DNA of 64,000 bases, taken from contig JACQVV010000510.1 of the NCBI GenBank assembly GCA_016209595.1, positions 852-64,851 of the forward strand, given 5' to 3'. Below, one piece after another: positions 15,615 to 53,509 of this stretch. Position numbers and translations under genes: made by a program. Under the pieces are notes generated by a model. That model ran no database searches. It was not told the DNA's origin and worked only from the letters and a program-made list of their open reading frames with translations. How positions within the stretch are numbered: the first letter of the stretch is position 1; the number at the start of each line of letters is the position of its first letter. The DNA comes from Planctomycetota bacterium (GTDB taxonomy: Bacteria > Planctomycetota > JACQVV01).

Positions 15615-18600
15615 ATGCGCGGGTCGCCAACCGACAGCGAAAGTGGAGAATCGGTCTTGGTCCCCAGGCACGACCCCGAGAGCGTCTACGCTCAGGTCCT
15701 CGCCGAGGGCGGCCTCCCGGCGAGGTTTCTCTCGCTCGTCGAGAGGGATGGGGAGAAGGTCGTGGTCGTGCGCAGGACGGATCACGCCGTCCGGGAGATC
15801 CTGGCGGCCATGGACGGCGGGGCGAGCGGCGCCGACCTGCAGGCAGGCTTCCCCGGCGTGACCTCCGAGGACGTGCGCGCGATCCTGGAACTCTCCCGGC
15901 GCGTGGACGAGATCGCGGGAAGAAGGAGCGCGTCCAGGCGGACCGTGCGGAAGCGGCCGGGTCTTGAGACGACCGAGGAGACGATCGTCGTCCCGCCGCC
16001 CCCGCCTGAGCGCCGGCGCAACCCGGGATCTGGATCGCATGCGCGATCCCGGACCGGGAGCGCCTGCGCGACCCCGGACAAGGACGTGAGGAAGCCCGTG
16101 GCGACGGGGGCGGAGCCGGAAATCGCACCGGCGGCCGGGGACCGCTACGAAATCCGCGAGGAGCTCGGTCGGGGTGGGATGGGACAGGTCCTCGTCGCCC
16201 ATGACCGCGAGCTCCGCCGCGATGTGGCTCTGAAAATCCTCCGCGAGGACCTCTCGTCCGACCCGCGCTACGCCCAGCGATTCCTGGAGGAGGCGCAGGC
16301 CTCCGCGCAGCTCGAGCACCCGAACATCGTCCCGACCTACGACTTCGGGCACCTCCCCGATGGGCGGGTCTACTTCGCGATGAAACTCGTGCGCGGGCGG
16401 ACGCTCGCCCGGGCTATCGAGGAACTCCGCGCCCAGAAGTCGCGGGCGCTGGAACGTATGCGCGACTCCGAATCTCAAGCGCATGCGCGACCCAGGACCG
16501 GGAGCGCAGGCGCGACCCCGGACAAGTACTTCGGCCTGGAGCTCCTTCTCCAGATATTCCTCAAGATGTGCGACGGCGTCGCCTACGCGCACGCCCGGGG
16601 CGTGATCCACCGCGACCTCAAGCCCGCGAACGTCATGCTCGGCGAGTTCGGCGAGGTCCTTCTCATGGACTGGGGACTGGCGAAGCTCCTGCCGCGCCGG
16701 CGCCGGCAGACGACGGGGTCGCGGAAGAGAGTCGCCCCCGATGTCCACACGCTTCGGGAGGAGTCCGACCTCGTGCTCACGCGGGACGGCGAGATCGCGG
16801 GGACCGCGCTCTACATGTCCCCCGAGCAGGCGCGCGGGGACCAGGACCACGTGGACCAGCAGTCGGACGTCTACGCCCTGGGCTCCATCCTCTACGAGAT
16901 GTTGACGCTCTCCGCGCCGTTCGAAGGAGCCGAGGGGGACGAGATCTTCGAACGGATCGCGAACGAGGACCCCGAGCCGCCCGCGAGGCGCGCTCCCGCC
17001 AGGCGGATCCCGCGCGAGCTCTCCGCGATCTGCCTGAAGGGGCTCGCGAAGGAGAAACGCGATCGCTACCGGACGGCGGCTGCCCTCCAGGAGGACATCC
17101 AGCGCTTCCTCGCCCACCAGCCGGTGCGGGCCGCTCCGGACAACCCGCTCCGGCTCGCCGGGAAGTGGGCGGTCCGCCACCCGACCCTCTCGGCCGCGGT
17201 CTCGATCGCGCTTGTCGTCTCCGCGCTCGCGGGCGCGGTCCTCAGGGTCCAGTGGACCGAGGCGAGGAACCAGAACCGGCTCCGGCTCGACGGGTATCGC
17301 GCCTCGGGCCGGGCCCATCAGGAGCGGGCCGCCGCGCTCCTCGACGAGTGTGCGGATGGCGCCGCGCGGGGCGACGTCCCACTCGAGGAGCTCCGTCTCG
17401 TCGTGCGCGAGTACGACCTCGCGCGCTCCTGGTACGAGATGCTCCGCAAGGAGGAGGAGGGGAGCGAGGCGTACGAGGCCGTCGTCCGGAGCTACCTCGG
17501 CCAGGCCCGGGCGGCGAGACTGGAAGAGATCATGAAGAAAACCCCAGGAGAGTACCCGGAGGCCGTTCGCTACCTCGAAGCGGCCCGCGCCGCGGACACC
17601 GAACGCCGCTTCGCAGGCGAGATCGACGCGGCTCTCCGCGACGCCGCCGCGATCGTGACGGTCACGCTCTCCCTCGCCCCGGCCGGCGCCACGGTCGAGG
17701 TCTTTCGGGTCGAGGGACCCTTCTGCGAGGAGACGTCCCTCTTCGAGGAGGTGGCCGGCGATTCGCCCGTTGTGCTTGACCTTGCCGCCGGGAGCTATGT
17801 CCTGGCCGCGCGCGCTCCCGGCCGGGCGCCCGCGAGGCTCCCCCTCTACCTCGAACGGTACTTCGACCGGAACCGGGAGCTCTCGCTCTCGCTTCTTCCG
17901 GCCGAGGAGGTGCCCCCCGGCTTCGTCCACGTCCCCGCCGGCTGGTTCCGCGCGGGCGAGGACGCGTCCTGGACTCGCATCGAGAAGGACTTCCTCATCG
18001 CCGAACGCGAGGTGGCCTTCGGGGAATACGTCGAGTTCTTGTCCTCCCTCCCCGAGGCGAAACGAGCGGAGTTCGCGCCGGCGGCCACGACGCTGGGCGA
18101 TCGCCAGCAGGACCTCCTCCCGGTCGTCCAGGAACTCGCCGACTGGGAGAAGTACCCTGCCGTCGGGATCTCGCTCGGGCAGGCAATTCCCTACGCGCGC
18201 TGGCGGAGCGAAGAGTCGCGCGGGGCTTTCCGCTTCCGTCTTCCGACCGACATGGAATGGGAGTATGCCGCGCGCGGCGCCGATGGCCGCCCCTATCCGT
18301 GGGGCTGGACCTTCGACCGCGAGCGCACGAACATGGCCCGGACCAAGGAGCACAACGTCAGCCTCGATGCCCTCCAGACCTGCCTCGAACACGCGGGCGG
18401 ACGTCCCGCCGGGCGTTCGGTCTTCGGGTGCCTGGAGATGGCGGGAAACGTCTCCGAATGGACCTCCACCGCGGAGCCGGACTTCGCCGTCTTCCGCGTT
18501 CGGGGCGGAGCCTTCAACTCCCCGGAGACGGGCTGCCTCACGTCCCACTACCAGGCCATGCATCAGATGGCCCAGTACACCCAGATCGGCATGCGCCTGG

Positions 18601-21987: not shown

Positions 21988-22775
21988 TCCTTGTCGCCGA
22001 GGGCGTGACCAAGGAGTTCGGCGGCCTCGTGGCGCTCCGGGACGTGAGCTTCGAGGCGCGCGAGGGAGAGATCCTGGGCGTGATCGGGCCGAACGGCGCC
22101 GGGAAGACCACGCTCTTCCACTGCGTCCACGGCATGCACCGGCCGACGCGGGGGCGCGTGATCTTCCGCGGGAAGGCGATCCAGGGGCTCCCGCCCCACC
22201 GGGTGGCGAGGCTGGGGCTCGCGCGGACGCACCAGATCGTCCGGCCGCTCCCGGAGCTCACGGTGCGCGAGAACGCCGCCGTGGGCGCGTGCTACGGGCG
22301 CGAAGGGCTCGGGCTCGCGAAGGGCCTCGCGGCCGCCGACGAGGCGCTCGCCCAGGTGGGGCTCGTCGCGAAGCGCGACGTCCCCGCGGCGAAACTCAAC
22401 CTGGGGGAGAAGAAGCGTCTGGAGCTCGCCCGCGCCCTCGCGGCCCGGCCCTACCTCGTTCTCCTCGACGAGGTCCTGGCGGGCCTCAATCCCTCCGAGG
22501 TCGACGCGATGCTTGTCACGCTCCGCGCTGTCCGGGACCGAGGCGTGACGCTCGTCCTCGTGGAGCACATCCTGCGGGCCGTGATGGGCCTCTCCGACCG
22601 CGTCCTCGTCCTCGATCGCGGGGAGAAGATCGCCGAGGGACCTCCCGACGAGGTCTCCCGGGATCCTCGCGTGATCGAGGCGTACCTCGGAGACCCGCGG
22701 GCCGCGGCAAGGCTCGTAGAGGGATCGGGGAAGGGGGCCGGTTCCTCTCCCCCCTGCGAGGGAACGGGGGCGTAG
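21984..22775 (+). CDS. livG: Branched-chain amino acid ABC transporter ATP-binding protein
   Basis: ATGA overlap with livM. Walker A GPNGAGKTT, signature LNLGEKKRLELARAL, Walker B YLVLLDEVLAG and EAYLG, followed by a tail of roughly 25 residues. Confidence 0.9.
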   Translation: MILVAEGVTKEFGGLVALRDVSFEAREGEILGVIGPNGAGKTTLFHCVHGMHRPTRGRVIFRGKAIQGLPPHRVARLGLARTHQIVRPLPELTVRENAAVGACYGREGLGLAKGLAAADEALAQVGLVAKRDVPAAKLNLGEKKRLELARALAARPYLVLLDEVLAGLNPSEVDAMLVTLRAVRDRGVTLVLVEHILRAVMGLSDRVLVLDRGEKIAEGPPDEVSRDPRVIEAYLGDPRAAARLVEGSGKGAGSSPPCEGTGA

Positions 22776-22776
22776 C

Positions 22777-23535
22777 GTGCAGATCCTGGAAGCGCACGGG
22801 ATCGAATCGGGCTACGGCGACGTCCAGGTCCTCTGGGGTGTGAGCCTCGCGCTCGAGGCCGGCCATGTGACCGCGCTCGTCGGTGGAAACGGCGCGGGAA
22901 AGACGACGCTCCTCTCGACGCTCGTCGGGCGGATCCGACCGCGGAGGGGCCGGATCGTTTTCCAGGGCGAGGACGTGACCCGGCTCGCCGCACACGCGAG
23001 GACCCGGCGCGGGCTCGTCCTCGTGCCCGAGGGGCGGCGCCTCTTCACCGAGATGACGGTCCTGGAGAACCTCCAGATGGGCGCGACCCCGAAGCGCGCC
23101 CGCGCGCGGATGCGCCCGAACCTCGATCGCGTCCTCGCCCTCTTCCCGCGCCTCTCGGAGCGGACCCGCCAGAAGGCCGGGACCCTCTCGGGCGGCGAGC
23201 AGCAGATGCTCGCGGTGGCGCGGGGCCTCATGTCGGAGCCGTCCCTCCTCATGGTGGACGAGCTCTCGCTCGGCCTCGCGCCCGTCCTCGCCGTGGAGCT
23301 CTTCCGCGCGCTCCTCACGCTCAAGGACGACGGGCTCTCGATCCTCCTCGTCGAGCAGAACGTCAGCCTGGCCCTGGGCGCGAGCGACCACGCCTACGTG
23401 CTCCGCGAGGGGAGGATCGAGCTCTCCGGCCCGGCGAGCGAGGTGAAGAGCGACGAGCGGGTCCGGCGGGCGTACCTCGGGATCGCCTGCGATCCAGGCC
23501 GTCCTCTCCCTCCCTCCCCGACCGCCGAAGCGTGA
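22777..23535 (+). CDS. livF: Branched-chain amino acid ABC transporter ATP-binding protein
   Basis: Walker A GGNGAGKTT, signature LSGGEQQMLAVARGL, Walker B LLMVDELSLGLAP and RRAYLGI, followed by a 16-residue tail encoded by repeat sequence. Confidence 0.9.
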   Translation: MQILEAHGIESGYGDVQVLWGVSLALEAGHVTALVGGNGAGKTTLLSTLVGRIRPRRGRIVFQGEDVTRLAAHARTRRGLVLVPEGRRLFTEMTVLENLQMGATPKRARARMRPNLDRVLALFPRLSERTRQKAGTLSGGEQQMLAVARGLMSEPSLLMVDELSLGLAPVLAVELFRALLTLKDDGLSILLVEQNVSLALGASDHAYVLREGRIELSGPASEVKSDERVRRAYLGIACDPGRPLPPSPTAEA

Positions 23536-29381: not shown

Positions 29382-29654
29382 ATGGCCCGTACGCTCGTGC
29401 TGGCCCTACTGCTGGGAGCCGTCCTCCTGGCCGTCGGCTGCCACTATTCCGATTACAGCGTCGCCTACGCCGACAAGAACACGGCCGTCTTCGTGTCCAA
29501 ACGGTCGGCGCCGCCGCCGCCGCCTCCGGCCCCGCCGCCCTACTACGGGCCCCCCCCGCACTACCCCGGAGACCAGGCTTCGGGCTTCAGGCTTCAGGGG
29601 TTGCGTTGCGGGGCCGGGAAGCCGCGTCTGAGCTGTAGGCGCCGCCCGCCGTGA
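29382..29654 (+). CDS. Small proline-rich lipoprotein
   Basis: RBS gagaggag, MARTLVLALLLGAVLLAVGC lipobox and a PPPPPPAPPPYYGPPPHYPG tract. Its last ~25 codons run through heptamer-repeat DNA. The stop overlaps the GTG start of the mega-ORF (GTGA). Confidence 0.5.
   Translation: MARTLVLALLLGAVLLAVGCHYSDYSVAYADKNTAVFVSKRSAPPPPPPAPPPYYGPPPHYPGDQASGFRLQGLRCGAGKPRLSCRRRPP
29576..29610. repeat. Tandem heptamers (ggcttcg ggcttca ggcttca) followed by ttgcg-ttgcg
   Basis: Read directly. The ttgcg units resemble the reverse complement of the tccgcaa heptamer at 6739..6759. Confidence 0.7.
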
Positions 29655-30830
29655 TACCCAGATACGACGCGATCGTCGTCGGCGCGGGCCCGGCGGGCGT
29701 CACCGCCGCGGCCGTCCTCGGCCGGAGAGGGCTTTCGGTGCTCCTCTTGGAGGCCGCGGTCTTCCCGGGGGCGGAGAACTGGTCGGGCGCGGTCTATTTC
29801 ACCGAGACCCTCGAGGACGAATCGGTGTTCGGGGCCGCCGGGCTCTCCGAGGCCCCGTTCGAGCGAAAGGTCGTCCGGAGAGGGTTCTTCTCCTCGAACG
29901 GCCACACCGTCCTCGGCGCGACGCTCGACTCGCCCGACACCTTCGCAAGCTCCTGCACCGTGCTCCGGCCGGTCTTCGACCGGTATCTCGCCGAGAAGAC
30001 CCGCGACTACGGGGTCACCCTCGTTCCGGAGACGACGGTTACGAGCCTCATCCGCGAACGCGGGCGGGTCGTGGGCGTCCACACGGAGCGGGGCCCCGCC
30101 TACGCGGACGTGGTCTTCCTCGCCGAGGGGGACGCGAGCCACCTGGTGAGCCAGGAGGGATACGAACGTCGCGGACCGGACGGGCGCTCAATCCGGCCGA
30201 AATTCCTCCAAGGCGTCCGCGAGGTGCTCCGGCTCCCGCCGTCCGAGATCGAGCGCCGCTTCGGGCTCATCCCGGGCGAGGGGGCAGCCTACGAGTTCCT
30301 GGTGAGGAACGGGGTTCGCCACGGCCGCCCGGTTCCCCTGAACCTGGGCGCCTTCCTCTACACGAACCTCGACTCTCTCTCGATCGGATACGTTCTCCCC
30401 CTCTCGAACCTCCGCGAGCACTGGGACGGCGACCACAACCAGCTTATGGAATGGTTGAAAGCCCAGGAAGTTTTCCGGCCCTGGATCGAGGGAGGGGAGA
30501 GCGCGAGTTACGGTGCGAAGCTCATCCGCGGCGGCGGCTTCCGGGAGATACCGCGGCTCGCCGCCCACGGCCTGGCGATCGGCGGCGCGGCGAGCGGGAT
30601 CGGCCTCGACTTCCCCTACCCCAACTTCACGGGGCCCGCGACGGCCATGGGGAAGCTCTTCGCCGAGGCGGTGCTCTCGATCCGGGAGTCCGGCGAGGCG
30701 TTCACCGCCGAGGCGCTCGAAGAGGAATACGTCCGGAAGCTCGAGCGGTCCCACTACTACAGGAGCGTCGAGTACCTCTCTGACTGGCCCGCCTATGTCG
30801 AGTCCACGCGGGTCTTCTTCGGATCTTCCA
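29651..30830 (+). other. Domain: FAD-dependent oxidoreductase, FixC / ETF-quinone oxidoreductase-like
   Basis: YDAIVVGAGPAGVTAAAVLGRRGLSVLLLE dinucleotide fold; later GDASHLV and LAIGGAASG. Confidence 0.7.
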
Positions 30831-33800
30831 TCGATCTCGCCAACGGGGCGGCCTACGTCCTCACCCGACCGCATCTCCCGGCTTTTCCCAAGTGGTGGGA
30901 GCTCGTCCGGGTGGTGCGGGAGGCCGTGCCGATTCGCGCCCTGCCGGCCACCCTCCGGGACGGCCTCATCCTCGCGCGCGTCTTCCGGGTGCCGGAGCTC
31001 CTCCTCGCCCATCTCCCCCGGGTCCTCGTGGCCTGGACGGTGAACTCCCTCACCGCGCTTCTGCCCGGAGGCTGGATCCCCTTCGACCGGTTCCGGGTCC
31101 ACTTCCACGTCGCGGGCGGGCGGGAGCCGGTGGCGGATCCGCCGGCGTTCGTTCGCTGGGCCGGACGGCGGATCGTGCCAGGTCTCGGGCGGGCCCTCCT
31201 TTCTGTCTACGCGAACGACGGGGCGGCGCTCCCCGAGAAGCTCCGCGCGGCTGCCCGGAGGGTCCTGGAGCGCCTTTCCTGGCTCGACCTTCTCCTCGCC
31301 TGCGGACTCGCGGTCGTCTTCGCCGTGACGGCGACGGTCCAGCGCGCCGGCGAGATCCTGCGCGCCGCCCTCGGCGGGCTTTTCGCCCTGGGCTTCCGCG
31401 GCGGCGCCGGACCCGCCGAGCGCTGTCGCGCCGCGCGCGACGCGGCGGCGGCCCTCGACGACCCCGCCCATGCCGCCGGGACGGACCTGGCGCGGAAGCT
31501 CGGCTACAACACCTACTTCCCCGGCCGCGAGAGCCACATCCAGGTCTTCCGGCCCTCCGGGATTCCCCGGCGGGGCGAGCTCGCGCGTTCCTCGCTTTTC
31601 TCCATCTGTCCGGCGAAGGTCTACGAGAAAGAGGAAAATCCGGGAGGCCCGCCGTCGGTCGCCGTCCACTTCGAGAACTGCGTGAAGTGCGAGAGCTGCT
31701 GGCGGGCGACGGACGAGGTCCACTGGAGCCGGGCAACCTCGCAACGCCTGATCTACGAAACGTACTCCCCGGCGCAGCGGAAGCTCGTCTCCTACCTCGA
31801 ATCGCGTCCGGATCCGGAACCGACTCCGCCGCCCGCGCTCGATCGCTGGGCCGACTGGCTCCTCCCACAGCGCTCGGGGCTCGATGCTTTCGCGGACTCG
31901 CTCGCGCCCGCGACGGCACTCCGCGTCGCCCGGCGCGTGAAGGAGGTTCTGGCCCGGGCATCTTCCGTGAAACGCGCCGCAAACCGGTTCGCCGAGGCGC
32001 TCTCAAAGGTCCCGCGCGTCCTCGACGAGGCACGAGCGGCCTGGCTCGCGGACCTCGCCGCCGCAGGCCGCTCGGGAGTCCTTTCCCTCGCCGAGCGGGT
32101 CCTCTCCTCACCCCTGGCGGAGCTCCGTCCGTACCTCGAAGCGCGGGCCCCCGACCATCTCTTCACGCTGGTCGGCTCGCTCGTCGAGAGGGTCGAGGAG
32201 TTCCCCCGGCTCGCCTCCGAGCGCAGGTTCTTCTGGATCGGCGTTCTTTTCCGGCAGTTGGTCGACCACCAACTCCATGGCCTCATCCTCGCGGTGTCGC
32301 CGCTCGCCATCCGGCTCGACCTTTGCGAGTCGAGGCCGCCGCGGGTGCCGGGGCTCCGGCGGACCCGATGGGACGAGCTCCGCGGCTCGCTGCGCGAGAG
32401 ACTCGCCTCGGCGTTCGACCGCGCCTCCGTGAAGGCTCTCGACGACGGGAAAGATCTCGGGGAGCCGGCCCGCGAGCTCCTCGGCCGGCTCTACGTCGAG
32501 GCGCGCCGGCTCGCCCCCTCGGACGGTTACGGACCCGGGGAGGTTCTGGTGGAGGAGCTCGCCAGGATCGACCCCTCGCTCGCGCTGTCGGTGGGAGGAC
32601 ACCAGGCGGCGGTGCGCTACCTCGATCTCCTGGGAGCTCAAGCGAGGACCGGAGACCTCGCCGAGGGTCGCGAGTGGGCGGTCCTCGTTCCCCGGCCGGG
32701 GGAACTCGTCCCGGCGGCACTTGCCGACCGATTCTGCGTTCTCTCCCCCGATGGTTCCGCCCATGTCGTTCGCAAGGACCACCCGGGACTCGCCGTGGAG
32801 CCGTGCCGGACGATCGGGGTGCGCGGGGCACGGCTCTCCCGAGTCCGATTCGACCCGGCCGCCGGGGATGTGGATTTTGCCGTTGCGGCCCCCGCCGGAT
32901 TCGTCCCGGAGGACGCGCTTCTCGCGGCATGGAGTCGCTCCTTTCTCGCCCTCGCCCTGGGCGCGGGCGAGTACCTGCTGGAACGGGCCAGAGCGCACGC
33001 GACGGGGCGCGTTCAGTTCCCGGGCGAGTTCCGCGATGAGGCCGGCCGCGAGGGGATCGCGAAGTTCGGGGCCGTGAAGGAGATGCTCGCCACGATGGAG
33101 CTCCATCGCCTCGAACTCTCGGCCCTCGCCGGAGAGGATGAGGATGAGGATCCGGGTGCGACACGGGCCGCCGTGCGCCATCTCGCTGCTGCCCTCGCGC
33201 TTTCCCCGGTCCCGGGCTCCTTCACCTACGACTCCGGACAGGTCTTCGGCGGCACCGCCTACAGCGAGGACGACGTCCTCGCGAAGTTCTACCGCGACGG
33301 CGTCGCGCTGGGACGATTGACGCCGGACGTTTCGCTCGCCAGGACGCGAATCGCGACGAGCTTCCTCGCGGGTTGGCCCGAGAACGCGAGCATGCGCGCG
33401 CTCGATGAGGCCGAGCGCTGGGGCGTGCTCGCCGGCGCCGCCCGCCGGATTCGAGAGGCGTGTGGCGTCCTCTCGGAGTGGGCCTCTCGCGCTCGCGAGT
33501 CCGCTACCCCCGACGCGGCTCTGGCCGGCGCGGTGGTTGGGGACGCGATCCTCGCGGTCCACCTCGCGCGACTTGTGGCGGTCGAGGCCCAGGAGCTGCT
33601 GGAATCGGGCCGCGCGGCCCATCTGGAGACCGAGCTCGCGCGCCTCGCGGCGGACCGGGCGCTCCCGGCCGCCCGCGCGGCCGTCCGGTCCTGGGATCTT
33701 GCCGGGCGCACCGCCTTGCTCGGACGCCGCGCGCTCGAGGGTCCGCTCTTCGAGCCGGCGGCTTCGGTTGGCGCCTGTCAGGGGGAGGGGAACAGCCCCC

Positions 33801-36800
33801 CCTTCCAACTCGGAACGCGGAACTCGGAGCTCGGAACTGAAAACAGCAGGGCGGCCTTGGCCCCAGTTCCGCATTCCGCCTTCCGCACTCCGCATTCGGG
33901 CGGCCCCCTCCCCCTTCCCAAGCGCGGGACGTACCGCGAGATCATCGAGTCGCCGGCCACCTACGACTCGGGAGAATTCCTCTCGCGGCCCTTCGACCTT
34001 GAAAGGCCCCGCTACGTTCCGGAAACGGTCGCTCGCGACGCCGATCTCTGGGACTTCCACGTCCGGACTCGTGAGTTCTACCGTTCCCAGTTCCACGGGC
34101 GGCTCTTCGACGGCTCGACCTACGGCCGGATGCTGGAACGACTCCACCGGGTTCCAGCCGCGGACCTCGCGCGCATTCAGGATCACGGCCACTTCAGGGT
34201 GTTCATTCCGCGGGAACTGGGTGGCCTCGGGCTCCCCAAGGCGTACTACTACCTGGTGATCCTCCACGCGACGCGCTGGGCCGATCCGGCGGTCTCCCTC
34301 ACGATCCAAGTCAACTCCTCGATCGGGACGACCCCGTTCCTGATCGGCCTTTCGGAGGTCCGGGAGGCCGCGCGAGATCTCGCGGCGGGAAACGCGGCGG
34401 GGTTCTTCGGAGAGATCGCGTCGCTCTTGCTCAAGGACCGGGCCCAGGACGCGCGGGAACTCCTCGCCCGTCGGTTCGGCCGCTCGCCCGTCCTGCGACA
34501 GATCTCCGGGCCCCTCCTCGACGCCCTCCGCGGAAGGGCCGGGGAGGCCTCGCGTCTCCTGGAGGCCCTGCCGGCTGCTCTCGCGGCGCGCCTGGAGGAG
34601 TGCGAGCGCCAGCGCCGGGCGCTCTCGCTCGCGCTCTCGCTTGTCTCCGCCGGGCAGGTGAGCGCGTTCGCCCTCACCGAGCCGACGGCGGGGAGCGACT
34701 CGGGCGGGGTGAAGACGACCGCCCGCCGCGAGCGCCGCCGCGTCCATGCGGATCCCGACGGGGTCCTCTGGTTCTGGCTCGACGAGGAGAGTGAGGAAAA
34801 GCGCCGGAACCTCGTGGATGCCGACCGGATCTCGACCGAGAGTCGCCGGATCCTCTACCGCTGGTCGGATTCCGAGGCGCCCGCCGAGATCCGCTTCGAC
34901 GAGTACGACTACGAGCGAGCCGGCGCCGCCGGCTGGCGCACCTACCTCCACGGCTCGCGGAAGGTCGAGATCCACGACGTCGCCCAGGTCCGGCGCGGCC
35001 CGGACGGACTCTTCTACGAGTACTACGAGCTCTCGGGCGCCAAGATGTGGATCACGAACGGCCGGTACGCGGGGCTGTTCGCCCTCTACGCGCTCACGGC
35101 GCCGGGCGAGGTCTCTGGGCTAGTGGTGGACCGCCACGCCGAGGGGCTGGTCGTCGGCGCCGACGAGGAGAAGCTCGGCCAACTGGGCTCGCCGACGAAC
35201 GAGCTCTCGCTCGACCGGGTCCGGGTCGCTGCCGAGAACCTGATCGGCGTCGCCGGCCGGGGGCAGGTGAACGCGCTGGAGACTCTGAACGTCGGCCGGA
35301 GCGGCCTCGCGATGACCTCCGTCGGGATGCTCCGCGATCTCCTCTTCTGCGACGTAGAGGACCGGCGGGGCGCCGGGGAGGCCGCGCTCCCGGCCTCGGA
35401 CCTCTTCCGCATGGGCCGTATCGTCGAGGAACTCGCGGCCTGCGATTCGCTTGCCCACGAGCTCGTCGGACTCTTCGATCACAAGGGGACGAGGAGCCTG
35501 CGGATCGAGTCGGGCGTGGCCAAACTCTTCGCGACCGAGTCGCTCGGGCTGGCGATCTCCGAGGCGGAGGAGCTCCGCGGGGAGGGTGCGGTCTCCACTC
35601 GCTTCGACCTGGAGAAGAAGCGCCGCGACCACCGCGTGCTCACGATCTACGAGGGCACGAACGAGGTGCAGCGGTTCCTCGTGCTCAAGGATCTGGTGCA
35701 GCGCGTTCTCCCGGCGTGGCGGGTTGCTCCGCCAGGAGAGCCGCCCGCGTTGAAAGGGGGAGGGGAACTGCCCCCTCCCCCTTCCTGCCGCCGGCACTCC
35801 CCTTGCGAAGCAAGGGTCGTGCCAGCGGCCCCCTCCCCTTCCTCCCCCGTGGGCGTGAATCCCGTCCACGTTGCGTTCCTGGAGAGCGCGAAAGAGCGCC
35901 TCCGCGCGCGCCTCGCGAGCGCCGTGGATCGGTTCGGAGAGGACGTCTGGCGGAATCCCTCGCTCCAGCCCTCCTTCTTCCGCCTCGCGGAGACGGCGAG
36001 CTGGATCAAGGTCGCCGATTCGGTTCTCTACCGGATGGCGAGGCTCGCGGCGATGGCCGAGCCCGGCCCTGCCGATCCGCACGGGAAAGCCGGAAACGAG
36101 ACGCGCCCCGAGGACCCTTTCCTGGAGGCAGGGGCGCTCCTGCTCGAGCGGGCGCGGATCGAGCTCGACCTCCTCGACGAGCGACACGCCCTCTCTCTTG
36201 CCTACTTGGAGGCCGGCCGCTATCCGCCGGAGATCATCGCCGCCGAGCTGGGACTGGAGGAGGCCGCGCGTCCGGGGTCGGTCCCGGTCCCGTCGCCGGC
36301 GCCGGGCGCGTTCGGACGGCCCGCGACCGTCGTGGTCGCAGTGAAGCCTGAGTTTGTGCTCGCGCCTCGCCCGCGGGTCGAAGAGGGCCGACTCGTCGAG
36401 CCGCTTCGCGCGCTGTCTCTCGCCGACCGGCGTGCGCTTTCGGTGGCGGAGAAGATCCGGGACGCGGACCCGGGCCGCATTCGCCTCGTCGTCGTCACGG
36501 CCGGCCCCCCGATCTGGGCCGAGATTCTGAGAGAGGCCGCGAGCTACGGCGCGGACGATGCCGTCCATGTGCTCGTACCGGACGGGGGCGAGGACCCGAT
36601 CGCCGCCGCCGGGTGGGTGGCGAAGGCCCTGGCGGAGCTGGGGGTCCGTCCCGATCTCGTCCTGGCTGGAGAGCGGAGCCCCGGATCGGGGAGGGGCGCC
36701 TTCGTGCCCGCGCTCGCCGAGGAGCTCTCGGCGGAGCACGCATCGGAGCTTGCGGCGGTGCTCCCCGCGCCGCCCGATCCCGCGCTGGAGGGGGGTGGAC

Positions 36801-47018: not shown

Positions 47019-48791
47019 TCAGCGCCCTTTCGCCAGCGCCTCGCGCGCTTTCTTCGCGTACTCCGTGTCGCCGTACTCGTCCACGACCTTCTGGAAGTAC
47101 TCGCGCGCCTTCGCCTCGTTGCCGTTCGCGCGCGAGTTCGTCCCCAGCGTGAAGAGCCTGCGTGCATCTTCGATTCGCCGGGCAGCCGCGACCCTCGCCT
47201 GCGCCTGGGGATCGGAGTCGATGGCCGCGAGCCGCTCCGCGGCCTGGCCGGCGAAGCGCGAGAGCGAGTGCCGCTTGACGAGGGTCTCGTACTTGCCGCG
47301 CGCCTCGAGGAGTTCGCCCTTCTTCTCGCATTCCTGGGCGCGCACCCAGACGCTCTGGGCCTCGGCGTCGGCGCGGGCCCGCGCGCCCGCGGCGAGCCGC
47401 GATGCCTCCTCTCCGAAAGATGTTCCCTCCCAGGCCCGGGCGAAGCCCTCGACCGCCGCGAGCGCCTGGGGCGTCCCGTCCCTTCGGAACGAGGCCGCGA
47501 GGCGATCGAGCTCTTCTCGCGCTCGAAGTTCGATCGCGGCTCTCGCTTCGTCGGCCCGCGTGCCCGCGGGGAGGTCGAGAGCAAGCTCGGCGAGCTCGTT
47601 CGCCTTGCGCCAGGCCTCGGCGAGACGGCCGGCCGCTTCCGCCGCGGCGCGCTCGGTCTCCAGGCTCTCCAGCTGGCGGCGGTTCCTCGCTTGTTCCTCC
47701 TTCCCTCCCGCGGCGAACGGAGCGTAGAGCGGGTCGCCCAGCACGATCGCCTGCCAGGAGAGGCAGCGGTCCGCCATCGCGAAGCTCTCGCCCAGCGTGT
47801 ATCCCGAGAGCAGCCGGTCGTAGGCAATGACCGAGATCGGGAAGCCGAGGGTGAGGGGCTCGTAAACGGTGCCGCAGGTCGCCGTCGCGCCGTGGGCGAG
47901 GAGCGGCCCGACCCAGCACTCCTTGTCCGTGCGCACGACGCCGGCTGCGAACGAGTGGAGGTGGACGGCGACGGCGCCCGGCGGGAACCGGAACTCCGGC
48001 TTCTTGAAATTGTAGGTCCCCGTGTACCAGCCGTCGTAGAGGACGACGTCGTCGAACTCGGAGAGGTCGAGAACCTCCGGCTTGTCGTCGTGGTGGAAGG
48101 GGAAGCCGTGCCTCTCCAGAACCTTGAGCGTCCCCTTCATCTCGTCGTCGCGCGCCTTGTAGCCGTCCGGGTTGGTGAGGCCGCGCGTGTCGATGTAAGC
48201 CTTGCCGGAGAGCCCGAAGCGTTCTCCGAGCAGCGCAAGGTTGACGAGCCCCTTCGCAACCTGCGCCGACGGCCCGTCGAGGCGCCCGAAGACGAGGCGC
48301 TTCACGCCGGCCGAGATCGGCTCGTCGCGGCCGTAGTACGGGTTCTCGACGAGCCCCTTCGTCTCCCAGGTTCCGCGGGGCAGGAGCGCGAGCTCCTGGT
48401 CCACCGCCGCGAAATCCCGCCCGCCGATGAAGCCCTCCCCGACTCCCTTGTCGTCAGAGCCGTCGGTCTCGGCGATCTTCACCGGGACGCCCCATGTCGT
48501 GACGAGGAACAGGACTTCGCGGTGAGCCTCGTAGAACGCCCGGACCGGCGCGAGGATCTCCCGGTCGAAGACCTCCCGCGAGATCTCCTCCTTCTCGGAG
48601 GTCGAGACCGAAACGATCATCGACTCCGGGATCCCCCGCCGCGACGCGTAGTGCCTGCCGATCTCGACCGACTCCGGCACCCGGTCGTTCACGACGACCA
48701 TGACCTGCCGCGTCACATCGACCTGGAACGGAACGTCTCCGGCAAGAGCCGGACCGGCGGAAAAGAGAACCGCGAGGAAGAGCCCATCCAT
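47019..48791 (-). CDS. TIGR03790-like secreted protein with C-terminal TPR region
   Basis: ATG at 48791 gives MDGLFLAVLFSAGPALAGD. VVVNDRVPESVEIGRHYASRRGIP, FGRLDGP, DGWYTG, VAVHLHSFAA, TCGTVYEPL and LGDPLYAPF. The family name is from memory. Confidence 0.65.
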   Translation of the reverse strand: MDGLFLAVLFSAGPALAGDVPFQVDVTRQVMVVVNDRVPESVEIGRHYASRRGIPESMIVSVSTSEKEEISREVFDREILAPVRAFYEAHREVLFLVTTWGVPVKIAETDGSDDKGVGEGFIGGRDFAAVDQELALLPRGTWETKGLVENPYYGRDEPISAGVKRLVFGRLDGPSAQVAKGLVNLALLGERFGLSGKAYIDTRGLTNPDGYKARDDEMKGTLKVLERHGFPFHHDDKPEVLDLSEFDDVVLYDGWYTGTYNFKKPEFRFPPGAVAVHLHSFAAGVVRTDKECWVGPLLAHGATATCGTVYEPLTLGFPISVIAYDRLLSGYTLGESFAMADRCLSWQAIVLGDPLYAPFAAGGKEEQARNRRQLESLETERAAAEAAGRLAEAWRKANELAELALDLPAGTRADEARAAIELRAREELDRLAASFRRDGTPQALAAVEGFARAWEGTSFGEEASRLAAGARARADAEAQSVWVRAQECEKKGELLEARGKYETLVKRHSLSRFAGQAAERLAAIDSDPQAQARVAAARRIEDARRLFTLGTNSRANGNEAKAREYFQKVVDEYGDTEYAKKAREALAKGR

Positions 48792-48829
48792 AAACCCGGA
48801 CCGAGCCCGGCGGAGCGCCGGCGGCCCGG

Positions 48830-49984
48830 CTACGAGGCGCGAGCCCCCCTCGCTTCGCTCGGGGTAAACTTCACCAGCCAGCTTGCCCCGAGCGAAGCGC
48901 GGGGAAGCAGACGGGCCGTCGCCGCCCGCCCGGCGACGGGAGGGTTTCTGGATGGGCTCCAAGACCAACCCGCGAGGCATGCTGGGCTCCTGACCGTTTC
49001 AGGGCCCCCATGATACCCGCTTCGCTTCACTCCTCGAAATTCGTCCGCGAGGTTGCGGCCGTCCTCGCGCGGCTCGGCCACGAGGTCCCAGAGGCGTATC
49101 TGGGAGCGCCGGATGATCGCGAGCGCCTTCCCGCTCTCGTCGCGGTCGAGCTCGAGCATGTGCGCGAGGGCCGAGAAATCCTCCACCACCGGCGGGATGT
49201 GCGGGCCCTCGTGCTCACCCGTCCCTTTCCCGCAGGTCTCGCACGTGGGCGCCCGGAGGTCCTCGTCGATCGGGTCGGGCGGGGCGACTCCCGCCCTCGC
49301 GAGGTTTTCCATCTTGGCCTGGAGGAGAGGCACGATCGCCGGGTTGAGCAGGTAATGCGCCGGCCGCGGGAAGAGATCCACGCGCCACTCCCGCACGGTC
49401 GCGAGCTGCTTTTCCATCTCTTGCATCTTCCCGATGGGCCGGAAGAGCTCCGCCAGAAGATCTCCGAGAGAGGTCTCGAAGTCCTCGTCGCTCATCGCGC
49501 GCACGCGGAGGAACAGGGCCTTCGCGCGGGTCGTCTCGCTCGCCACGACATCGTCGGGCAACTCGCCAAGCCAGTCCCTCAGGGTCCACAGGACGAGGCG
49601 CGTCAGGCCGGCGGCGACCTGCTCCGCGTCGCGAGACGACAGCATGCGGGCGATCCGCAGCCACTCCTCGCCCGGGCCGTTGCCCGAGGCGGCCTCTCCC
49701 GCGCGAACGGGATCCCGTAGATCGTCCGGCGGGATCACACAGGGCGAAAACGTCTCCGCGACGCGCCACTGCGCCGGCGCGAGGACGGCCTTGAGTTCCT
49801 CCGCGAGCTCGGCGAGCCTGGGCATCGCGTTCTCCGGGAGCCTGCCGGCGGCAGGGGGAGCCGGGTGGAGCTCTTCTTCGACTTCCTGGGGGATCTCGCC
49901 GGTGGCGATATCGAGGCGCTCCTTCACCCGTTCGAGGGCCCGGTGGTGCCTGCGAAAGGCCGCGTCCTGGGTCCGGAGCGCCAC
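48830..49984 (-). CDS. Hypothetical protein
   Basis: 384-aa ORF with mostly ordinary composition. No motif recognised, and the last ~50 residues look like run-on. Confidence 0.45.
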   Translation of the reverse strand: MALRTQDAAFRRHHRALERVKERLDIATGEIPQEVEEELHPAPPAAGRLPENAMPRLAELAEELKAVLAPAQWRVAETFSPCVIPPDDLRDPVRAGEAASGNGPGEEWLRIARMLSSRDAEQVAAGLTRLVLWTLRDWLGELPDDVVASETTRAKALFLRVRAMSDEDFETSLGDLLAELFRPIGKMQEMEKQLATVREWRVDLFPRPAHYLLNPAIVPLLQAKMENLARAGVAPPDPIDEDLRAPTCETCGKGTGEHEGPHIPPVVEDFSALAHMLELDRDESGKALAIIRRSQIRLWDLVAEPREDGRNLADEFRGVKRSGYHGGPETVRSPACLAGWSWSPSRNPPVAGRAATARLLPRASLGASWLVKFTPSEARGARAS

Positions 49985-53239: not shown

Positions 53240-53509
53240 TGCCCGCGGGGACCCGGTAGCCGTGACCCTTCGCTGCGCTCAGGGCAAGCTGGGTCCGGCG
53301 CGAGAGCGCCGGCAGCCGCGGCATGGATTGGGGGTCCCCTCCTACGCTCCGGAGGGCCTCTTCGATGCCTTCGGGAACGTCGTAGATGCCTCCAAGAACC
53401 TCCACGCGACCGTCCATCTCACCCCCGCGGTGACCGTCGTTCGGCGATGGGTGATACCCGATGGCGGCCTGCCGGCGATCGGGACGGCCCCGGCCTCTTG
53501 ATGGGGGCA

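Follow-up and report, generated by a model that had tools for sequence, protein, structure and literature searches.

'Selfish DNA inside proteins' is already known from bacteria, its closest described forms being repetitive extragenic palindromes (REPs) and Rickettsia palindromic elements (RPEs). Intragenic REPs of the GTAG- and CGTC-tagged types lie in genes as single units of ~10 residues or grouped in stretches of 20–30, some genes being hit twice; such hits are frequent in replication and repair genes, and examples include Opitutus terrae, from the Planctomycetota–Verrucomicrobiota–Chlamydiota (PVC) group, and Rickettsia conorii, with the short RPE-4/RPE-6 (Di Nocera et al. 2013, PMC3733652). 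Classical RPEs measure ~150 bp (PMC10969869), and RPE-1-type elements are described, in the summaries of Ogata et al. (2000, 2002) given by PMC10969869 and PMC3733652, as being ~100–150 bp long with a conserved peptide in one frame. The present analysis concerns a much shorter palindromic repeat found in a 64 000-nt stretch of DNA from a Planctomycetota bacterium (assembly GCA_016209595.1, contig JACQVV010000510.1, positions 852–64 851 of the forward strand; hereafter 'the window'), where two segments of it lie in a Ser/Thr kinase gene. The best explanation, with a probability of about 0.8, is that each segment is an array of a miniature palindromic repeat, REP/RPE-like and lineage-specific, that was inserted at the DNA level and is tolerated, being in frame, stop-free and in disordered regions.

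The insertion reading holds because a core of the repeat has 177 matches in the genome, clean 27-nt insertions of it are found at other sites, the affected kinase segment measures 62 residues instead of the 38 seen in homologues, alignment to PknB leaves a gap and AlphaFold models a coil. A preliminary description of this DNA had proposed an in-frame insertion of a DNA element, with one copy inside the catalytic domain, as opposed to a duplication at the protein level, and this same evidence supports the proposal. The window is part of contig C415 of a metagenome-assembled genome (MAG) of 8.0 Mb in 656 contigs, with 68.7% G+C, ~95% completeness and 7% contamination; C numbers below designate its contigs and G000 this genome.

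Two repeat arrays in a kinase gene

The host protein carries a Pkinase domain (residues 178–493, 4.6e-39 in Pfam) and a C-terminal FGE-sulfatase (SUMF1-like) domain (residues 768–953, 1.8e-24), with a weak DUF433-like N-terminus and a transmembrane/linker region between the two domains, a layout in keeping with the homologue name 'bifunctional serine/threonine-protein kinase/formylglycine-generating enzyme family protein'. The catalytic motifs GxGxxG, VALK, HRDLKPAN, DWG and SPE are all intact. Within its gene, two 47-bp copies of a palindrome-rich element had been reported at 16036–16082 and 16480–16526. Both exist and share 43 of 47 positions, and a degenerate pattern spanning the two 47-mers has no match in the window beyond these 2 sites and 0 in 100 shuffles. 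The gcatgc core is present, extended to gcgcatgcgc in copy B, and copy A has the tcccgg-a-ccggga palindrome; the near-identical peptides HARSRTGSACATPDK and HARPRTGSAGATPDK are likewise encoded in the 1001-aa open reading frame (ORF). The repeat is therefore real, but its proposed extent is not: similarity between the two sites spans ~83 nt at 78% identity, both have an internal period of 25 nt (2.9 copies in the first according to Tandem Repeats Finder, TRF), and each 47-mer corresponds to the last two units of a three-unit array of 25-nt units. These arrays, here called A and B, are listed in Table 1 with the other features.

Table 1. Features of the host gene and of the repeat in the window, in window coordinates
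Feature	Position	Strand	Basis
Host Ser/Thr kinase gene, 1001 aa	15615..18620	+	ORF list, Pfam, names of homologues
Array A: three head-to-tail 25-nt units, 75 nt, 25 codons, residues 131–155, encoding PERRRNPGSGSHARSRTGSACATPD	16005..16079	+	TRF
AAGGAC directly 3′ of array A; fits A(A/T)GGA, the putative target-site motif	16080..16085	+	information-content profile of 238 aligned copies
Array B: three 25-nt units, 75 nt, 25 codons, residues 279–303, encoding LERMRDSESQAHARPRTGSAGATPD	16449..16523	+	unit mismatches, homologue lengths, PknB gap, AlphaFold2 model
AAGTAC (Lys-Tyr) directly 3′ of array B; native conserved K-Y of the KYSLG motif opening αE	16524..16529	+	alignment of 40 homologues, e.g. 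...AQKYSLGVLLQIFMK
Further single 27-nt-type copy CCTGGAACGCGTATGCGCGACCCCGGACATGGA, antisense, within ~130 nt of the 3′ end of the giant ORF 29651–38263 (2870 aa)	38129..38161	-	nhmmer E 1.4e-6

Array A, which contains the first 47-mer, lies in an unalignable linker 22 residues ahead of the Gly-rich loop and is made of units 16005–16029 (degenerate), 16030–16054 and 16055–16079, with 7, 2 and 2 mismatches to the consensus. Array B, containing the second, lies between kinase helices αD and αE, and its units (16449–16473, 16474–16498 and 16499–16523) show 5, 3 and 2 mismatches. Since a unit of 25 nt does not amount to whole codons, the units of one array are read in three frames (LERMRDSES / QAHARPRTGS / AGATPD), and repetition across three frames within one array shows that the repeat exists at the level of DNA and not of protein.

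This bears directly on the possibility that a useful peptide was duplicated at the protein level or within the gene, for instance a motif in the ATPDK linker that serves as a Thr-Pro phospho-acceptor or for docking. Such a view would account for the near-identical peptides ending in ATPDK at both sites, and over the 47 nt first noticed A and B are indeed mutual best matches (4 differences, versus at least 6 for other copies). Over the full 75 nt, however, 17 positions separate A from B, more than the 13–16 counted for arrays on other contigs; the motifs ATPDK, ARPRT and RMRD occur in 0 of 119 homologues; and a peptide origin is contradicted by the ~250 copies across the genome, which occupy both strands, three frames and also non-coding DNA, as well as by the reading of one array in three frames. 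Peptide duplication is thus very improbable. The same counts rule out A and B as sister arrays. Moreover, the earlier opinion that the insertions are recent is not supported by these counts or by the degeneracy of the 5′ units of both arrays, in which 5–7 of 25 positions are changed. On this basis A and B would be two ordinary members of the family, not especially young.

The position of array B in the kinase fold can be read in three ways that agree. First, the segment from MKLV to IFMK is exactly 38 residues long in 35 of the 40 closest kinase–FGE homologues and 62 in the window kinase; removal of the 25 array-encoded residues brings it to 37, so that the 25-codon array accounts for the difference. 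Second, alignment to structures of Mycobacterium tuberculosis PknB makes the αD–αE segment 32 residues longer than in that kinase. Third, in an AlphaFold2 model with a mean predicted local distance difference test (pLDDT) score of 84, the first unit of array B prolongs helix αD and the remainder is coil of pLDDT 49–61 ahead of αE, the score dropping from 75 to 61 to 49 over model residues 124–148. The placement of copy B in the αD–αE connection, suggested from the outset, is therefore supported on all three counts, and the model renders the segment as an αD extension followed by low-confidence coil. Since the K-Y that follows array B is conserved in homologues, the array sits immediately 5′ of a native AAG codon. 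Array A would lengthen the pre-kinase linker and array B the αD–αE surface connection by 25 residues; the simplest view of the arrays is as surface or linker insertions that the protein tolerates, and their effect on the kinase is most likely neutral.

Paralogues of this kinase in the same genome form a subfamily in which the αD–αE loops are all long and variable. A long loop as a feature of the family was nevertheless ruled out as an explanation of array B, the homologues that combine kinase and FGE domains having a fixed segment of 38 residues. In three of the paralogues (C158:600–790, C297:3800–3960 and C493:150–320) the loop holds a piece of another repeat family of this genome (GCGGAACGCGGAGCGCGGAACGCGGAACTGAAAAAGA, related to window positions 33781–33914), and in the C158 kinase a 27-nt element of the present family stands directly beside the GCGGAACGCGGAGCGCGGAACGCGGAACTGAAAAAGA-type piece. 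This kinase loop is a repeated landing site for different repeats. The kinase complement itself is very large, a kinase query matching more than 300 segments in each of the order's four genomes (G000 and G001–G003), and an enrichment of the element in kinases is not claimed, because the element-bearing kinase sites, at least 6 in number, are about what chance would give in so huge a complement.

The repeat family, its empty sites and its genomic context

The unit of the family is CYGGAGCGC(GC)ATGCGCGACCCCGGAC, with a basic form of 27 nt, or nine codons (CYGGAGCGCGCATGCGCGACCCCGGAC), and a 25-nt variant that lacks the GC in the central palindrome. In tandem, the form with the 12-nt palindrome CGCGCATGCGCG repeats every 27 nt and the form with GCGCATGCGC every 25 nt. 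A 20-nt core (GCGCATGCGCGACCCCGGAC) gives 177 matches at ≤2 mismatches on 122 contigs, versus 0 for the reversed control pattern, and is identical in 58 copies; a profile search with nhmmer finds 248 loci at E ≤1, versus 1 in the reversed genome. The density is ~1 per 32 kb. Alignment of 238 copies delimits a sharply bounded conserved window of 33 nt (GCYGGAGCGCGCATGCGCGACCCCGGACAWGGA). Multi-unit loci are nearly all head-to-tail with a period of 25 or 27, inverted pairs being few (C648, C342), and ~12 loci hold three-unit 75-nt arrays of the 25-nt variant, some of them non-coding and two of them in the window kinase. A unit can fold into a hairpin with a 4+4-bp stem interrupted by a 2×2 internal loop and closed by a CATG loop; array A, as single-stranded DNA, forms a long composite hairpin of −26 kcal/mol (z −3.4). 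The antisense copy at 38129–38161 of the window would be read as SMSGVAHTRSR.

Outside this genome, 30 relatives have 0–1 matches each to the 20-nt core, the exact core is found at 13 loci in 185 579 species representative genomes and at 6 loci in JGI metagenomes, in both cases as chance-level singles only, and an 85-nt array query returned nothing convincing in 150 genomes of the phylum. Among the genomes searched, the family therefore appears restricted to this lineage. Two further alternatives are an assembly or binning artefact and a DNA-uptake-type sequence. The MAG is fragmented into 656 contigs with 7% contamination, and some copies of the element are at contig ends. However, the reading frame and the homology to the N- and C-lobes of the kinase run on across both arrays, and the copies vary in sequence. 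Uptake sequences such as the Neisseria DNA uptake sequence (DUS) and the Haemophilus uptake signal sequence (USS) have a density of ~1 per kb, lie on either strand and are common to the members of a family, unlike the present element with its far lower density, its orientation with genes and its lack of conservation in the relatives. Both possibilities are extremely unlikely.

A unit length that is not a multiple of 3, in head-to-tail arrays within a coding region, also recalls contingency loci, where gain or loss of a unit by slippage would shift the frame and turn the kinase off or on (phase variation). Against this, adjacent units are only ~60–90% alike, which makes a poor substrate for slippage, and three units are found in intragenic and leader arrays alike. 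Little credit can thus be given to 25-nt arrays as phase-variation switches.

Comparison of filled and empty sites defines what is inserted. In a repeat resembling a miniature inverted-repeat transposable element (MITE), the copies on C630 and C514 are filled and at least 10 copies are empty, the difference being exactly 27 nt (empty ...GCGAAG^CAACGA... versus filled ...GCGAAG[CCTGGAGCGCGCATGCGCGACCCCGGA]CAAT...). Likewise, the C158 kinase has +27 nt compared with C297 and C493, at GGGG^CGAGAA; the kinase on C552 has +27 nt in the activation loop compared with a neighbouring paralogue; and an NtrC-like gene on C75 has +27 nt compared with C650. Two essential housekeeping genes show the same in comparison with other genomes: the DNA ligase LigA (C36:~10319) has nine additional residues (LERASATPD) that are not in five relatives and lie 20 residues before the KxDG adenylation lysine, and the arginyl-tRNA synthetase ArgS (C512:7424) also has nine more than five relatives. 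No target-site duplication is detected in these comparisons beyond an ambiguity of 1 nt. Two independent insertions in the MITE-like repeat cannot be claimed, since C630 and C514 share a derived CAATAC flank; their filled state may go back to a single event plus recombination.

On the 3′ side of the copies, A(A/T)GGA is conserved at 70–88%. Because the empty sites G^CAACGA and G^CGAGAA already hold an A(A/G)G(A/G)A-like motif, this conservation is read as a target preference, with insertion at C^A(A/T)GGA. A target duplication of 3–5 nt (GGA or NNGGA) was considered and ruled out, as the two ends of the element differ systematically (CY versus AW) and the empty sites do not fit it.

The MITE-like repeat that provides the empty sites is itself ~160 nt long, with 18-nt terminal inverted repeats (GAGCCCATCCAWAAACCC ... 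GGGTTTWTGGATGGGCTC), and many of its copies are at contig ends. Copies are found in the window at 48779–48963 (C415:49630–49814), at C409:16010–16220, on C272, C511, C35, C75, C179 and C382, and in ~40 further matches; the internal hairpin shows compensatory variants between subfamilies, the window copy has a different central module and there is no match in Rfam. A short module, GAAGCTTGCCCCGAGCGGAGCGAGGGGAC, recurs beside the present element (C50:9690–9740, C446:7030–7075, C562:4830–4870) and also within the window MITE-like copy (48880–48905), which suggests nested or modular mini-repeats.

The genomic context was classified for 204 loci by a log-odds model of codon usage, trained on the genome's own long ORFs and applied to 150-nt flanks, a crude gene model and not a curated annotation. 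Intragenic copies are sense and in frame at 46 loci, sense with a frame change (gene ends or miscalls) at 7 and antisense at 8; copies just 5′ of a gene are sense at 35 loci and antisense at 23, copies 3′ of a gene sense at 26 and antisense at 10, and 38 loci are non-coding on both sides. In short, ~70% of copies are not intragenic and ~30% are inside unrelated genes, in several frames, namely LERACATPD-K/M-D (26 copies), GARMRDPGQG (12) and SAHARPRT (2). In long ORFs of the genome CAWGGA has a sense to antisense ratio of 2.3:1, with AWG being a codon in 90% of the sense occurrences, and from this excess and phase one would expect the dominant frame and some, though not all, of the sense bias. 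At ~18 loci, tuf included, translation probably starts either at the ATG within an ACATGGA end or 2–12 nt downstream of an AAGGA end. The tuf (EF-Tu) leader has a three-unit array (C243:1190–1270, - strand) directly 5′ of an AAGGAGG Shine–Dalgarno sequence and downstream of a promoter-like TTCAGC...CATAAT.

From this distribution it could be argued that the repeat is a selected cis-acting signal, either a 5′-leader hairpin with a ribosome-binding module or a site bound by some abundant DNA- or RNA-binding protein, which spread for its usefulness and of which the in-gene copies, those of the kinase included, are by-products. This idea draws on the bias relative to neighbouring genes (114 sense-type versus 41 antisense-type contexts), on the ~18 copies at Shine–Dalgarno or start positions with the tuf-leader array among them, on the identity of the 20-nt core in 58 copies and on a pair of loci, on C75 and C115, where the element is ~90% alike and the flanks 73%. 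However, the motif precedes insertion in the empty sites and the K-Y after array B is native, so that the association with Shine–Dalgarno sequences and ATG codons is better explained by target choice. Also contrary to a signal are the ~30% of copies lying in unrelated genes in several frames and the absence of the family from every relative searched, unlike what is expected of a conserved regulatory signal. A role as a cis-acting signal is hence unlikely, yet less so than the other alternatives considered so far.

Possible insertion mechanism and relation to known repeats

At the sites compared, the element adds one clean block of 27 nt directly 5′ of A(A/T)GGA and duplicates no target sequence. 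Each inserted unit recreates the insertion junction, which would account for head-to-tail arrays with an exact period of 27 or 25 nt. The preference for C^A(A/T)GGA would explain why LERACATPD followed by Lys/Met-Asp (AAG GAx) is the commonest frame, why copies are mostly sense and why many are on Shine–Dalgarno sequences (AAGGAG) or starts (ACATGGA). As for the agent, IS608 and ISDra2 insert beside a short specific motif, make no target-site duplication and have a hairpin instead of terminal inverted repeats. By analogy, mobilization by a trans-acting enzyme acting on a single-stranded hairpin, in the manner of the REP-associated tyrosine transposase (RAYT) or of the IS200/IS605 Y1 transposases, is put forward tentatively, at somewhat less than even odds; an enzyme of that kind would give no duplication and insertion beside a short fixed motif.

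Several observations weigh against the insertion reading or against the proposed agent. No empty allele of the window kinase is found in any database; no protein above ~46% identity to the kinase exists among 5.8 billion sequences, the best matches being at 43–46%, and three genomes of the same order give paralogue-level matches only. A single unit folds as DNA with −7.1 kcal/mol (z −1.4), no more stably than shuffled sequences. A single 25-nt unit would shift the reading frame, so that the 75-nt arrays must either have entered whole or have arisen by some other route, the gene otherwise going through a frameshifted stage. The sense bias in genes, at 53:8, exceeds the 2.3:1 set by target availability and the second frame is over-represented too, so that selection or another factor acts as well. 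No mobilizing gene linked to the element is found in the assembly, whose ~95% completeness leaves room for a missing gene, and no TnpB is found there either. Only two Y1-transposase-like genes are present (C369:13502–14494 and C637 ~22627–23526), RAYT-like and of ~300 aa, and their proteins score 57 bits versus the 80-bit cut-off of the RAYT model NF047646; they are flanked by their own GTAG/GCAG-tagged hairpins (GGTCCGGCGCTCGCGCGCCGGTAG, 5–9 copies) and not by the element, whose nearest copies are >8 kb away. Finally, a lagging-strand mechanism of the IS200/IS605 type predicts an orientation bias relative to GC skew, and none is seen relative to the sign of the skew over 10 kb (105:94), a comparison limited by short contigs and a weak skew (mean |skew| 0.02). 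One hairpin of the GGTCCGGCGCTCGCGCGCCGGTAG type is also present in the window at 53292 (C415:54143).

A different agent can be imagined, namely a non-RAYT enzyme that inserts exactly nine codons, free of duplication, at C^A(A/T)GGA and acts as a 'loop and leader writer', in contrast to a passive REP, systematically remodelling initiation regions and surface loops. Its target would coincide with Shine–Dalgarno sequences, ATG-GAx starts and Lys-Asp/Glu dicodons; the kinase loops, LigA and ArgS would be cases of such remodelling, and 25-nt arrays could add frame switching. This proposition is unlikely.

Considered as inserted selfish DNA, the element shares with REPs an imperfect hairpin of 20–40 nt, a copy number in the range of tens to thousands, species specificity, encoded lengths of ~10 residues for single units and 20–30 for grouped ones, and a mostly extragenic location with some copies in frame in known genes, replication and repair genes among them (here LigA), some host genes also being hit twice. 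It differs from the GTAG type, since neither the consensus GCYGGAGCGCGCATGCGCGACCCCGGACAWGGA nor its complement has GTAG or CTAC, and from the CGTC type (CGTC tag, stem of 8–9 bp, loop of 4–5 nt, tail of 3 bp), since the consensus has no CGTC or GACG and its stem is interrupted. Whereas REPs mostly form head-to-head or tail-to-tail dimers and favour positions downstream of genes, the element is arranged head-to-tail with overlapping ends and period 25 or 27, lies preferentially ahead of genes and in sense, and has a defined insertion point 5′ of AWGGA. No RAYT gene flanked by copies of it (a 'REPtron') was found, in contrast to RAYT-mobilized REPs. With RPEs it has in common the nature of a stop-free palindromic selfish repeat in frame in unrelated functional genes and compatible with their folds (46 in-frame sense copies, LigA and ArgS among the host genes); it is set apart from the RPE-1 type by size and host, its unit being 25–27 nt long, read in up to three frames and found in another phylum.

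Other systems are more distant. IS200/IS605 elements and their derivatives (REP/RAYT and palindrome-associated transposable elements, PATEs) likewise lack duplication, have a fixed adjacent motif and are centred on a hairpin, but here there is no linked Y1 transposase, no TnpB and no orientation bias seen against the weak GC skew, and the mechanism is one that we infer. MITEs, which have terminal inverted repeats and a target-site duplication, do not match a gain of exactly 27 nt with ≤1 nt of ambiguity and no duplication. Mycobacterial interspersed repetitive units (MIRUs) are short tandem units of 46–101 bp, dispersed in the genome and intergenic within operons, that are oriented with flanking genes and whose ends overlap start/stop signals. 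The element resembles them in its short, dispersed and gene-oriented tandem units and in its ends overlapping start/stop signals, and differs in being a palindromic insertion that also occurs inside coding sequence. Within the window itself, two repeats of ~138 nt (33781–33914) and ~93 nt (35756–35848) are, like the element, stop-free hairpins translated inside conserved genes; their sequences are unrelated to it and 3–5 times longer, and the element is far more numerous, with a defined 27-nt unit.

Meaning of the family

The repeat is a new family of a phenomenon already described and not a new principle. From beyond Rickettsia and the Proteobacteria, it adds a well-resolved example in which essential and signalling proteins contain translated selfish palindromic DNA, and its unusually clean empty sites fix the inserted unit (27 nt, nine codons), the absence of duplication and the target motif. 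For annotation in this lineage, it accounts for odd low-complexity kinase loops, for false N-terminal extensions where genes begin and for breaks in the assembly. The mobilizing enzyme, if found, could be a compact, sequence-specific inserter of single-stranded DNA. For the kinase, array B probably means only a tolerated surface loop of 25 residues.

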